NCBI GenBank assembly: GCA_017654855.1
Contig: CM030338.1
Span: 1,550,001 to 1,614,000, forward strand
Source: Podospora anserina
Taxonomy: Eukaryota
Length of the DNA: 64,000 bases
Reading direction: 5' to 3'
Position 1 is the stretch's first letter. Each line of letters opens with the position of its first letter. The translations under genes were made by a program, and so were the position numbers. This document shows positions 38,698 through 42,028 of the stretch, one piece after another. The notes under the pieces are model-generated. The model was not told where the DNA came from, did no database searches, and worked only from the letters and a program-made list of their open reading frames with translations.

Positions 38698-40590
38698 CTA
38701 CTCCTTCTCGCTCTCCAACACAGCCTTAATCATGGCCTGCCCTACCTCCACGGCCCCCTTGAATCTCGGCTCAAAGAACTTTTGCGTCACGGCGAACCTC
38801 TCCCTCCAAGTGTCAAACTGCCTCAGACTGACACACTCTGCCCAACCGGCCGCGGCAATCGCAAACTGCAAATCGTCCCTCCTGAAGCTCTTGTCTTCAA
38901 TCCCCACCCGCAAACACTCATCCAGCAACCCTGGGGTCCTGAACAGATGCTCCGCCACGCCCAGCCAAAGCCGAAAGAGAGGCGTCGAGCAAATCATGTG
39001 GTCGTAGGGCACGATCCCCAGCGCAGACCAGCAGTCGACCATGGCCAGCAGACTAAGGTGATTATTCGGCAGCCCCCTCCCCCCTCCCTTTTCCCCAGAA
39101 GGTTTATTAAGTGAAAACCGATCAAGAAGCTCCTCCTTTAGCAGCGGCCTCTCCGCCCACTTGGGGCTCCCCTCGGCGCCAAAGACTTTTTCTTTGGCTT
39201 TGTACACCCTCTCACGCAACTCATCGGATCTGCCCTCAAGCATGAGGTAAAACAACTCAGTACTCGACCGGGCAAACTGCCCAATCTGCTTGTGCGCCTC
39301 TGGGTTGAGGATCGCCAAGCCGGCGTAGACGTGCCACTTTTGGGCGTAGATCCTCAGCATGAGGTTGATTTTCACGTTTTCGATCCCGCCGATGTAGCGA
39401 GATCCTTCCTCCCAGGGGAACTGGCGGTTGGCGTGCCAGGCTTTGCCCATGGAGAGGAAGGCGGCGTGGGTGACGGCTTGGGTGTCGGCCGTGATGCGGT
39501 CGTGCTCTTTGGCTGTGAGGTAGACGTGTGTGGAGTTGAGGCATGACAAGACAGATTCGACTTTCTGGAAAGATTCGTCAGAGGCGCGGTGTTTGATCAG
39601 GACTAAAGGTTGCCCGCGGGGGTCGACGTTGGGGCCGTGGAGGGAATGACAAGAAACGATGTCGACGTCGGATGGGAGGTAGGACTCAAAGGCTTTGATC
39701 TCAGGGTCTTTGCAGGAGGTTTGGCCTCCGACTATGGCGCCTAGACGGGTTGCTATAGAGCACAAAATATGTAAGGAACTGGATGGGACAGTACGATCAT
39801 GATGATGAAGATGATGGATGGGACACACATGGGCCGAACTGTTCGACTACACGACCAATGGCGGCCGCCTCGACGCTGTAGATGATATAATTGCTCGCTC
39901 GCGAAACAAGGTGGCCGTTGCGGAGAATTTGAATATTGGTCTATAGACACAAACATCTCAGCAACTGGCTAACAGCAGCCAAGGTTAGAAAGATTGGAAA
40001 ATCACATCGTACATTGTCTGCAAATTCCTTGGCAAGCTCTTCAAATTTTTCTTCTCTATCGCAGGCCATGACTCTAAAAAGAAACAAAAGAAAAAGAACC
40101 CAACGATTAGCCAACCATATCCGACCAAAGTTCTGAATTGGAACGTGGAAACTGGAAGAAATCTGAGTCAATGTTAGCGGGGAATCCCACAAAAATCGAC
40201 AGTGATAAAAAGGTTGAGTGAAGGTAATACGGTCAGACGAAAAAAATTAGGTAGCTGAGATTTTTCATCATGGAAAGTCCGCAGTAACCACCGGGCCCAG
40301 AATGGGTGACCGACAACACCACGAACGATACTCTAGCCAAATGCACTCAAGTCATCATTGTATTGGGGGGAGGGGAGATTGTGCTGGTGTCAAAAAGAAG
40401 GAAGGACACGTACCATTTGGGGAAGAGCTAAAGTCGCTCAATGATGGTTAGTCGAAGAAAGTCGAGAGAACAAGCATTACCTCCATCCAGCGTTGGCCAG
40501 TCGGCGGGCATACATCCTGCCCATGTCGCCCATGCCAATGAGGCCGATGGTGAAGTCTTTCGACCACGCGAACTCGGATGCCGTCGCCAT
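38698..40590 (-). CDS. TYR1: Prephenate dehydrogenase
   Basis: Exons 40590-40481, 40073-40013, 39940-39829, 39752-38698. Rossmann IGLIGMGDMG, GGQTSCKDPE, CHSLHGP, EHDRITADTQAVTHAAFLSMG. Confidence 0.94.
40226..40364 (-). ncRNA. snR13: Box C/D snoRNA, snR13-like, inside TYR1 intron 1
   Basis: Minus strand: AATAC-A-ATGATGA (C box 40358-40352), GAGTGCATTTGGC-TAGA, internal ATGATGA, CTCAGCTACC, CTGA (D box 40236-40233), CC-GTATT. AATAC/GTATT form a terminal stem. GCATTTGGCTA pairs with conserved LSU rRNA UAGCCAAAUGC; layout resembles yeast snR13 as recalled. Confidence 0.85.
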
Positions 40591-40980
40591 TGTTGTTTCT
40601 CTTCCGAGCGAAAACGGTATTGCAAAGCAAGGGATACTCCTCGATGGCAAAGATCACATCCTCAGCAGGGCAACTGCGCAGAACTCCCAGCTTGTCTCTC
40701 AAAGCGGGGAAGAAAGTGTGCAAAGAATGCGAAGCTGGCTCGGCTGCTGTTGCTATTGTTGCGAGTTGAAGAGAAGTGAAAGAAAATTTCTGACTGGAAC
40801 TGAAATTTAAGCTTGCTCAAGGTGGGGCTCCCACCGTGCCCGCGACGCCCCACGGCCCCACTTGGATCTGGCAGACAGTGCACACTGTGGAGCGCACATG
40901 ACAAGACCTTGGTCATCAGGGTTAAGCTTCCCGAGACATCACCACTTACACTCACCTTATCAACCAACAACCTCACTCAG

Positions 40981-42028
40981 ATGACCACCCTCCTATCATT
41001 CGGCTCCAACGGCTCAGGCCAACTGGGCCTCTCCCACCAAGAAGACGTCTCCTCCCCCCTCCCTCGTCTTCACCCCCCACCCCTCAACCCTCCCCAGCTC
41101 AGTCGCCCAAATAGCCGCAGGAGGGAACCACACCCTCCTCCTCCTCACCAACAACCAAGTCCTCTACTCAGGCGACTCTCACAACAACAACAAAATCACC
41201 CCAACCTTCACCCCTCCACCCCTTCCAACACCTCCCCCAACCCCAATAAGATCCATCTCAGCAACCTGGTCCGCCTCCCACATAGCCACCCCCTCCCAGA
41301 TATGGGTCCACGGCCACGGAACAAAAGGTGAACTTGCCCTCGGCTCCGGCATCACCTCGGCCACCTCCTTCCAACCCATCCCCAACTTTCCACCCTCAAA
41401 CACAATAATCGTCTCTATATCGGCCAGCATGTCCCACGCCGTTGCTGTCCTGAACAACGGCCAAGTCTACGGTTGGGGCGCAGGTCGTAAAGGCCAGCTA
41501 GGTCCTGAACCATCACCCGCGGTGTCTTCACCAAGGTTAGTATCATGTCCTTTCCCTGTGGTGAAAGCCCTTTGCGGGAAGGAATTCACCCTCCTGCTTG
41601 GCCCTCCCCGAACAGGAGAGTTTCTGGTATTAGGGTCAGATAAATTCGGGATTAAATCCAACGCCCCCTCAGATCTAAAAGGTTGGAAGGACGCTGGTGC
41701 TAGCTGGGGGAGCGTCATCCTGCTAAAAGAGGACGGATCCCTCATCAGCTGGGGAAGGGATGACCACCAGCAACTTGCCCCATCGGACATTGGGCCAGTG
41801 GAAAAGATTGCTGTTGGGAGTGAGCATGCCCTGGCATTGACAAGAGACGGCAAAGTCCTGGCTTGGGGCTGGGGAGAACATGGCAACTGTGGATCACTTG
41901 AGGAGAACAACAAGGAGAGGGCGAATGTCATTCAAATCCCGGATGAATACAACTTGGAGGATCAGGAGGTTACAGCTCTAGGGGCAGGGTGCGCCACGAG
42001 TTGGATTGCCTTTGAGAAAAGGAGGTAA
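40981..42028 (+). CDS. ATS1: RCC1-repeat protein, ATS1/Kti13-like, with a 1-nt frameshift in a C6 run at 41054-41059
   Basis: MTTLLSFGSNGSGQLGLSHQEDVS; after removing one C the frame continues QIAAGGNHTLLL...GHGTKGELALG...VYGWGAGRKGQLG...IAVGSEHALAL...WGWGEHGNCG...GAGCATSW. Confidence 0.78.

Follow-up and report, generated by a model that had tools for sequence, protein, structure and literature searches.

Among the described systems closest to the locus reported here are stwintrons sensu lato, in which a canonical U2 intron is nested within another canonical U2 intron, as in a reticulon-like gene of Lipomyces (PMC7138796; this and the other papers are cited from parts of their text). They make up the fourth stwintron class, in which the outer donor, branch and acceptor elements are all left intact by the inner intron (PMC8469720). 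Excision proceeds from the inside outwards, and under intron definition it is the nearest sites that pair (PMC7138796, PMC8469720). A nested 'intron B' associated with snR51 in Euascomycetes is spliced stepwise, and introns associated with small nucleolar RNAs (snoRNAs) have been proposed to be excised and inserted elsewhere (Luo et al. 2013, PMC3596301). The Neurospora crassa snoRNA Nc CD1, of 125 nt, was cloned, was seen on Northern blots and is assigned the location 'Intron'; its D' guide is for 26S-Am2242, and it is a homologue of yeast snR13 (PMC2780460). For box C/D snoRNAs, the optimum for splicing-dependent assembly of the ribonucleoprotein (snoRNP) lies ~50 nt upstream of the branch point (PMC8162545, citing Hirose and Steitz). 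Here we describe the first intron of a TYR1-type prephenate dehydrogenase gene on the minus strand of a 64,000-nt stretch of Podospora anserina DNA (assembly GCA_017654855.1, contig CM030338.1, positions 1,550,001 to 1,614,000), called the window below and numbered from its first letter. This intron contains a second, complete intron that encloses a snoRNA assigned to the Nc CD1/snR13 type. The arrangement is very probably an intron within an intron, that is, a stwintron sensu lato with the snoRNA in its inner intron, and splicing is probably inside out.

The inner intron is spliced with the outer flanks attached

The outer intron of 407 nt and the inner intron of 251 nt each possess a donor, a branch element and an acceptor (Table 1). 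Every motif that an earlier, sequence-only reading of this DNA had listed between 40480 and 40074 lies at its minus-strand coordinates, and the two intron lengths given there hold. The inner intron begins 67 nt past the outer donor; its end lies 52 nt short of the outer branch element, with 89 nt left to the last base of the outer acceptor, and the outer-intron remainder after inner splicing is 156 nt. The inner sites (GTACGT, GCTAAC and CAG) are of consensus grade; the outer donor, GTAATG, is weak, with no G at +5. The snoRNA is placed 55 nt past the inner donor and 58 nt ahead of the inner branch adenosine. The 67-nt 5' flank starts with G TAA directly after the terminal AG of exon 1, an immediate stop, and further contains an unused GACTAAC (40453-40447), a TAG ending at 40428 and the 14-nt stretch 40427-40414.

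A run search listed 24 runs, 16 of which were tagged 'RNA?' by guess and contained 84-91% of the sampled words; six contained all of them. Contigs from four of the guessed-RNA runs (X11, X12, X6 and X1), which come from four studies and offer the larger contig sets, were compared over 39700-40750. Such contigs are evidence of presence, not of absence or amounts: rare variants are dropped, and depth cannot rank the parts of the gene. The four runs behave as RNA. Intron 3 (39828-39753) was joined out in all four and intron 2 (40012-39941) in three, with GT..AG ends on the minus strand, and a bin of zero depth fell on intron 3 in four of the four runs and on intron 2 in three. One contig of run X1 retains intron 2 (39829-40163 unbroken) though intron 3 is joined out; because this contig keeps intron 2, partly spliced TYR1-type RNAs appear to be common in at least one data set.

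The joint 40162/40414, one of three junctions to which the sequence-only reading had pointed, skips exactly the 251-nt inner intron and was present in all four runs from the four studies. Because the 59-nt joint contig has outer-intron sequence on both sides, namely 30 nt of the 5' flank (40443-40414) and 29 nt of the 3' flank (40162-40134), the inner intron was excised from RNA that still contained the outer intron. Unbroken contigs run from exon 1 through the outer donor to 40414 in all four runs, and others from exon 2 to 40163; the unspliced inner intron was assembled too, as one 310-nt contig in each run. The second junction, the productive joint 40073/40481 with its removal of 407 nt, was found in two of the four runs (X11 and X12); it is not listed in the contigs of X6 and X1, where a blank does not establish absence. 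Among these contigs, which drop rare variants, neither the crossed joints 40481/40162 and 40414/40073 nor the third of the junctions, the 40481/40427 joint of a proposed 53-nt intron, occurred in any of the four runs. At the outer donor, contig depths in X11 and X12 were 174.9 and 344.2 for read-through versus 57.3 and 131.8 for the mature joint, figures not usable as an isoform ratio. Taken together, the inner 251-nt intron is spliced by its own sites with the outer flanks attached, and a fully spliced TYR1 junction also exists.

RNA that has lost only the inner intron reads AGG TAA right after exon 1 and stops at codon 38, and therefore cannot encode the enzyme. An in-frame stop after exon 1 was present in 47 of 47 orthologous inner-only forms (see below), and a coding role for the inner-only isoform was rejected on this ground.

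Inner splice sites are conserved around the snoRNA

Metagenome contigs were scanned under the guidance of the protein sequence of the last exon, which gave 248 pattern matches, of which 183 encode a relative; the best 80 of the 183 were kept, at 53-86% identity. Eighteen of these loci were dropped with exon 1 or 2 missing, cut off or poorly matched, and the 62 usable loci together with the window provided 53 distinct first introns. All 53 are GT..AG introns at the same phase-2 position. The snoRNA, found by blastn in orthologous introns, is present in 50 of the 53: 49 copies were located by regular expression and one (L013) by blastn only. A consensus inner donor stands 25-85 nt ahead of box C in 47 of the 49 introns, and an inner CTRAY branch lies 45-80 nt past box D in 48, with an AG 8-20 nt further on and at least 20 nt before the intron end. 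Both the inner donor and the inner branch and acceptor occur in 47 of the 49 distinct snoRNA-bearing introns, whereas mononucleotide shuffles lead one to expect about 3.9 with a donor, considered alone, and about 3.9 with an acceptor, considered alone. This contrast of inner-site conservation with chance is strong.

The inner sites keep fixed distances from the snoRNA. The inner donor precedes box C by a median of 41 nt (range 32-79), the inner branch adenosine follows box D by 56 nt (50-73, 47 orthologues) and the AG follows that adenosine by 13 nt (10-18), within inner introns of 242 nt (225-298). The remaining outer intron measures 111 nt (77-274), and the outer branch adenosine falls 107 nt (79-153) past box D; the flanks that separate outer from inner sites diverge freely in sequence among orthologues. 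Exceptions to the nested form are L048, a simple 247-nt snoRNA intron without inner sites, whose single branch is also 56 nt past box D by hand count, with L049 similar, and L059, in which the inner branch and acceptor are present and the inner donor position reads GTTCGT.

In fungi, introns are short and occasional use of cryptic sites within a long one is likely, so that the inner sites could in principle be chance or cryptic matches and their use splicing noise. This explanation is close to refuted. Both inner sites keep fixed distances from the snoRNA in 47 of the 49 introns despite diverged flanks, where about 3.9 would be expected per site type; the inner junction recurred in all four runs, in contigs as deep as the mature-junction ones; the inner intron is precisely absent in a second species (L023, below); and the 53-86% protein identity argues against an orthologue set made up of a few near-identical genomes. 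The sequence-only reading had described 40413-40163 as a complete second intron around the snoRNA; it is a real splicing unit, and its use in the four runs and the retention of its sites in orthologues bear this out.

Natural variants at the intron position

Among the 53 introns, the snoRNA is missing from L023 (129 nt), L031 (62 nt) and L069/L070 (63 nt). The dropped locus L050 is likewise snoRNA-less, with an intron of 63 nt, and at L057 the intron itself is absent.

The pair L023 and L024 is the most informative, with 3 differences in ~660 aligned bases (L023:2245-2373 against L024:290-650). L023 is without exactly 232 nt, GTAAGC...CAAG, which equal the inner intron and end at the first AG past the branch; both loci retain introns 2 and 3, and what is left in L023 is the outer intron alone, of 129 nt. 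Genomic loss of the inner intron, which would make the pair a presence/absence polymorphism of a nested intron, is the likelier reading, and if L023 is a genomic deletion its 129-nt remainder must work as a plain intron. L023 could alternatively be a partly spliced RNA contig. Whichever holds, L023 is an example from a second species of inner-intron excision at the intron's own sites.

On a quick tree with a midpoint root, nested forms lie on both sides of the root, four rows with short snoRNA-less introns each stand beside nested rows, and the intronless L057 and the simple form of L048/L049 are also found among nested forms. The pattern suggests repeated secondary loss; rows L031, L057, L069 and L071 are long-branched in this tree, and 'four independent losses' is a reading of it, not a result.

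Order of splicing and fate of the inner-spliced RNA

We favour a mechanism in which the nested intron is removed from the inside out. The inner site pair would be complete before the outer branch is transcribed and, with its better consensus match, would react first. The snoRNA would leave in the resulting lariat, its distance from the branch being close to the one reported to suit box C/D snoRNP assembly best when assembly is coupled to splicing. Removal of the 156-nt remainder of the outer intron, with its weak donor, would come second and bring back the reading frame. Were this second step slow or incomplete, RNA with the codon-38 stop would accumulate, and part of it might never be finished. 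The ease with which the inner-spliced form was assembled makes a slow or incomplete second step probable. A two-step, inner-first route had been among the alternatives offered by the sequence-only reading; it fits the junctions seen, in which inner sites are joined to inner and outer to outer with none crossed, and the contigs leave the order of the two steps to be argued from the layout.

A G at +5 of the outer donor is found in 17 of the 49 snoRNA-bearing orthologues, compared with 29 of 50 for intron 2, whose boundaries in orthologues were predicted from alignment ends, and 45 of 45 for intron 3. The 32 outer donors without it read GTAAT (18) or GTAAA (14). A weak outer donor that is selectively kept is possible, though not clear-cut.

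The recovery of inner-spliced RNA with its flanks in four runs, and of the mature junction in two, would also be expected if two ways of splicing competed for the same transcript. Such a transcript would lose either the whole 407 nt, giving TYR1 mRNA, or the inner intron only, giving a dead-end RNA that carries the codon-38 stop and is removed by nonsense-mediated decay (NMD). Transcription could then follow the need for the snoRNA, with enzyme output low or regulated, and the gene would be a fungal counterpart of NMD-coupled snoRNA host genes. Direct outer splicing must, however, bypass a donor, branch and acceptor that match consensus and whose transcription comes earlier, and independent site choice should yield some crossed junctions, of which none appeared (a weak point, given the loss of rare forms from contigs). 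The stop after exon 1 in every one of the 47 orthologous inner-only forms and the lack of a +5 G in 32 of 49 outer donors are in keeping with competition; yet the outer sites work as a plain intron in the 129-nt remainder of L023 and in the 62-63-nt introns of L031, L050 and L069. In human snoRNA host genes, NMD-sensitive variants are numerous, and it has been proposed that alternative splicing together with NMD uncouples snoRNA from host output (PMC4233243); here the NMD sensitivity of the inner-spliced RNA is putative, and a form expected as an NMD target to be scarce at steady state was readily assembled. We judge competing splicing a real possibility that nonetheless falls short of being probable. 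It can coexist with the two-step route, and the present data do not separate the two. A choice between enzyme mRNA and snoRNA, which the sequence-only reading had drawn from the nested layout, does not follow from the anatomy: because the snoRNA sits inside whichever intron is removed, either splicing route can release it.

Several points weigh against inside-out splicing as we have set it out. The mature junction could derive from inner-spliced RNA or from one-step removal of the 407 nt, which contigs cannot distinguish, and the presence of the inner-spliced form in four of four runs versus the mature junction in two of four is no less compatible with a dead-end product than with an intermediate. 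A nearest-sites rule would pick the 53-nt intron from the outer donor; this intron did not appear, and the outcome therefore cannot be predicted from the rule by itself. Nor is the first intron alone in having a weak donor, as intron 2 often has no +5 G either. The 'RNA?' labels of the runs are guesses, and library types are not given. In the conservation analysis, the position windows were chosen after viewing the data, the shuffles were mononucleotide ones and the orthologues are related, which makes them fewer than 47 independent events. The snoRNA is known here as a sequence, its stable product and the methylation of its target being putative, and the second reading of L023 given above belongs with these points.

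Beyond the order of splicing, we put forward tentatively, as an idea that is more easily wrong than right, that the nested layout is a conserved control point. The strong inner intron would always yield the snoRNA, with the promoter set by the need for ribosome production, and the weak outer intron would be a detained intron whose slow, possibly condition-dependent removal sets the output of the tyrosine enzyme, unfinished RNA being held in the nucleus or destroyed. If true, this control point would be a fungal, single-gene, hard-wired uncoupling of snoRNA from host, kept across a wide range of filamentous ascomycetes.

The proposed micro-exon

The sequence-only reading had also divided the outer intron into three units, a 53-nt intron (40480-40428), a 14-nt micro-exon (40427-40414) and the snoRNA intron, with inclusion of the micro-exon acting as a switch. 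Its motifs are present and well spaced, with a branch adenosine 20 nt before the TAG, and the micro-exon does break the frame, giving a frameshift and an early stop with each of four acceptors tried (at codons 60, 119, 50 and 93 of 446). The RNA contigs speak against its use: in all four runs they are unbroken from exon 1 through 40480 to 40414, and 40481 is joined in them only to 40480 or 40073. The donor of the small intron would, moreover, be the weak GTAATG. Among 47 orthologues, a branch-plus-AG candidate between the outer and inner donors occurs in 8, against 2.6 expected, all of them in the closest clade of the window, and most orthologues have a 5' flank of 37-60 nt without a branch motif; candidates for the 53-nt intron and micro-exon are thus barely above chance.

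In 10 of the 47 (the window at 40428-40414, L001, L007, L010, L015, L020, L035, L040, L043 and L044), exactly 14 nt separate the end of an AG from the inner donor, and this is the fullest bin. Five of the ten, close relatives, have a YAG with a CTRAY branch motif 14-20 nt upstream, as the three-unit arrangement would have it; in the other five, a GAG forms part of a word resembling GTTGRGCCA, seen repeatedly in the 5' flanks of one clade. The 5' flank may hold a conserved element. The 53-nt intron and the micro-exon are motif matches, unused or at most rare, and we regard a three-unit organization as very unlikely.

The snoRNA, the host gene and its surroundings

The snoRNA has a length of 126 nt versus 125 nt for Nc CD1. 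Compared by eye with the 5' and 3' parts of that sequence as published, box C and the next 25 nt, including GCAUUUGGCUAGA, are identical, and the part from C' to D is nearly so. On this likeness the window snoRNA is of the Nc CD1/snR13 type, a snoRNA that is itself already known; the 26S target is carried over from the Neurospora paper, and the guide function here is putative. Rfam 15 gave no match at E 1 in 1.5 kb and none at the gathering score over the whole window. On 161 nt it returned weak matches only, to unrelated C/D families (E 0.71-9.2), with the snR13 model not reaching E 10, and there is a gap in Rfam coverage for filamentous-fungal members of the snR13 family.

Joining the minus-strand exons 40590-40481, 40073-40013, 39940-39829 and 39752-38698 gives an open reading frame (ORF) that translates into a protein of 446 residues. 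The last exon matches Pfam PDH_C, the prephenate dehydrogenase dimerisation domain (E 2.1e-05, 25.2 bits versus a cut-off of 22). Because of this match and the GxGxxG motif in exon 1, the gene is identified by its protein features as a TYR1-type prephenate dehydrogenase. Gene models for the TYR1-type gene must not take the inner junction as an exon boundary.

A divergent neighbour on the plus strand (40981-42028) begins ~390 nt upstream of the TYR1 start codon, and the two genes probably share a promoter region. The ORF pieces of this neighbour contain glycine-rich repeats of a kind that we take to be that of RCC1-like proteins. A plus-strand gene within the first intron was considered and rejected, with short ORFs only in that interval.

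Table 1. Features of the TYR1-type locus (window coordinates) and other states of the intron position (locus coordinates)
Feature	Position	Strand	Description
TYR1-type exon 1	40481..40590	-	ATG at 40590; GxGxxG dinucleotide-binding motif; phase 2 end, AG; located by tblastn in orthologues; junction 40481/40073
TYR1-type exon 2	40013..40073	-	joints 40073/40481 and 39940/40013; translation
TYR1-type last exon	38698..39752	-	Pfam PDH_C; protein part served as query for orthologues
Outer (external) intron, 407 nt	40074..40480	-	donor GTAATG 40480-40475; branch GCTAAT 40111-40106; acceptor TAG ending 40074
Inner (internal) intron, 251 nt	40163..40413	-	donor GTACGT 40413-40408; branch GCTAAC 40178-40173; acceptor CAG ending 40163; encloses the snoRNA
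5' flank of outer intron, 67 nt	40414..40480	-	kept after inner splicing; unbroken contigs from exon 1 to 40414
3' flank of outer intron, 89 nt	40074..40162	-	kept after inner splicing; outer branch GCTAAT and pyrimidine-rich tract; unbroken contigs from exon 2 to 40163
Box C/D snoRNA, Nc CD1/snR13 type	40226..40364	-	terminal stem AATAC 40364-40360 / GTATT 40230-40226, 5 bp
snoRNA box C	40352..40358	-	ATGATGA
snoRNA D' guide and box	40332..40344	-	GCATTTGGCTAGA
snoRNA box C'	40265..40271	-	ATGATGA
snoRNA box D	40233..40236	-	CTGA
Other states of the intron position	L031:1237-1298; L050:45-107; L069:2139-2201; L057:848-852		

Comparison with known systems

The first intron of the TYR1-type gene has four of the five defining features of a stwintron sensu lato, with a snoRNA as cargo; the inside-out order is the one that we infer. 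Two complete U2 units are nested, RNA lacking only the inner unit is present in four of four runs, mature mRNA without the whole sequence is present in two of four, and the mature joint 40073/40481 restores the conserved reading frame. The inner intron interrupts no outer donor, branch-point element or acceptor, and the sensu stricto classes ([D], [L] and [A]) were rejected accordingly. Recursive (ratchet) splicing was rejected as well, with no GT regenerated: CTCTTC follows 40428 and ATTTCT follows 40163.

As far as the cited parts of the Lipomyces paper describe it (PMC7138796), that stwintron shares with TYR1 the two complete U2 units, an inner intron that cuts no outer element, the finding of RNA without the inner intron and a mature mRNA free of the entire nested sequence. 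It differs in that the TYR1 inner intron carries a box C/D snoRNA and in that the TYR1 donors are 67 nt apart rather than abutting. The Lipomyces layout is found within one genus, whereas the TYR1 layout spans 53-86% protein identity, and the inside-out order that we infer for TYR1 was shown in Lipomyces by reverse transcription PCR.

The snR51 case, likewise from filamentous ascomycetes, resembles the present one in linking a nested intron to a snoRNA, but the relation is reversed: there, the host is non-coding and its snoRNA has a small intron inside it, and in TYR1 the host codes for protein and its small intron itself contains the snoRNA (PMC3596301, in part). Movement of whole snoRNA-associated introns, as proposed there, is a possible origin of the TYR1 layout, as it would account for a snoRNA intron that has its own sites within another intron.

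With human snoRNA host genes coupled to NMD, the locus shares a stop-bearing variant that is still able to release the snoRNA (Lykke-Andersen et al. 2014, PMC4233243, in part): the premature stop at codon 38 appears in RNA from which the snoRNA intron has been removed. In contrast to those genes, the TYR1 host is a fungal metabolic enzyme, and its variant owes its origin to a dedicated nested intron rather than to exon skipping or general intron retention.

The inner branch adenosine, at a median of 56 nt (50-73) past box D in 47 orthologues, is near the position rule for box C/D snoRNAs as excerpted from PMC8162545. That rule was established in mammalian cells, and with the outer branch at a median of 107 nt the inner intron alone obeys it. 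The window snoRNA has its length class, its 5' and 3' sequence and its intronic location in common with Nc CD1; neither a host gene nor a nested intron is given for Nc CD1 in table 1 and supplementary files 1 and 4 of that paper (PMC2780460).

A description of the TYR1 case, a snoRNA in a nested intron, was not found in the open-access literature. The locus provides a natural system for asking whether the mammalian box C/D position rule holds in fungi, why inner splice sites are kept though the outer ones could remove everything, and whether a slow second round of splicing can let a fungus set its supply of snoRNA apart from that of the host enzyme. Fungi are known to have snoRNAs in introns and, separately, nested spliceosomal introns; in the TYR1-type gene, an ordinary metabolic gene, both come together at a single, deeply conserved locus.

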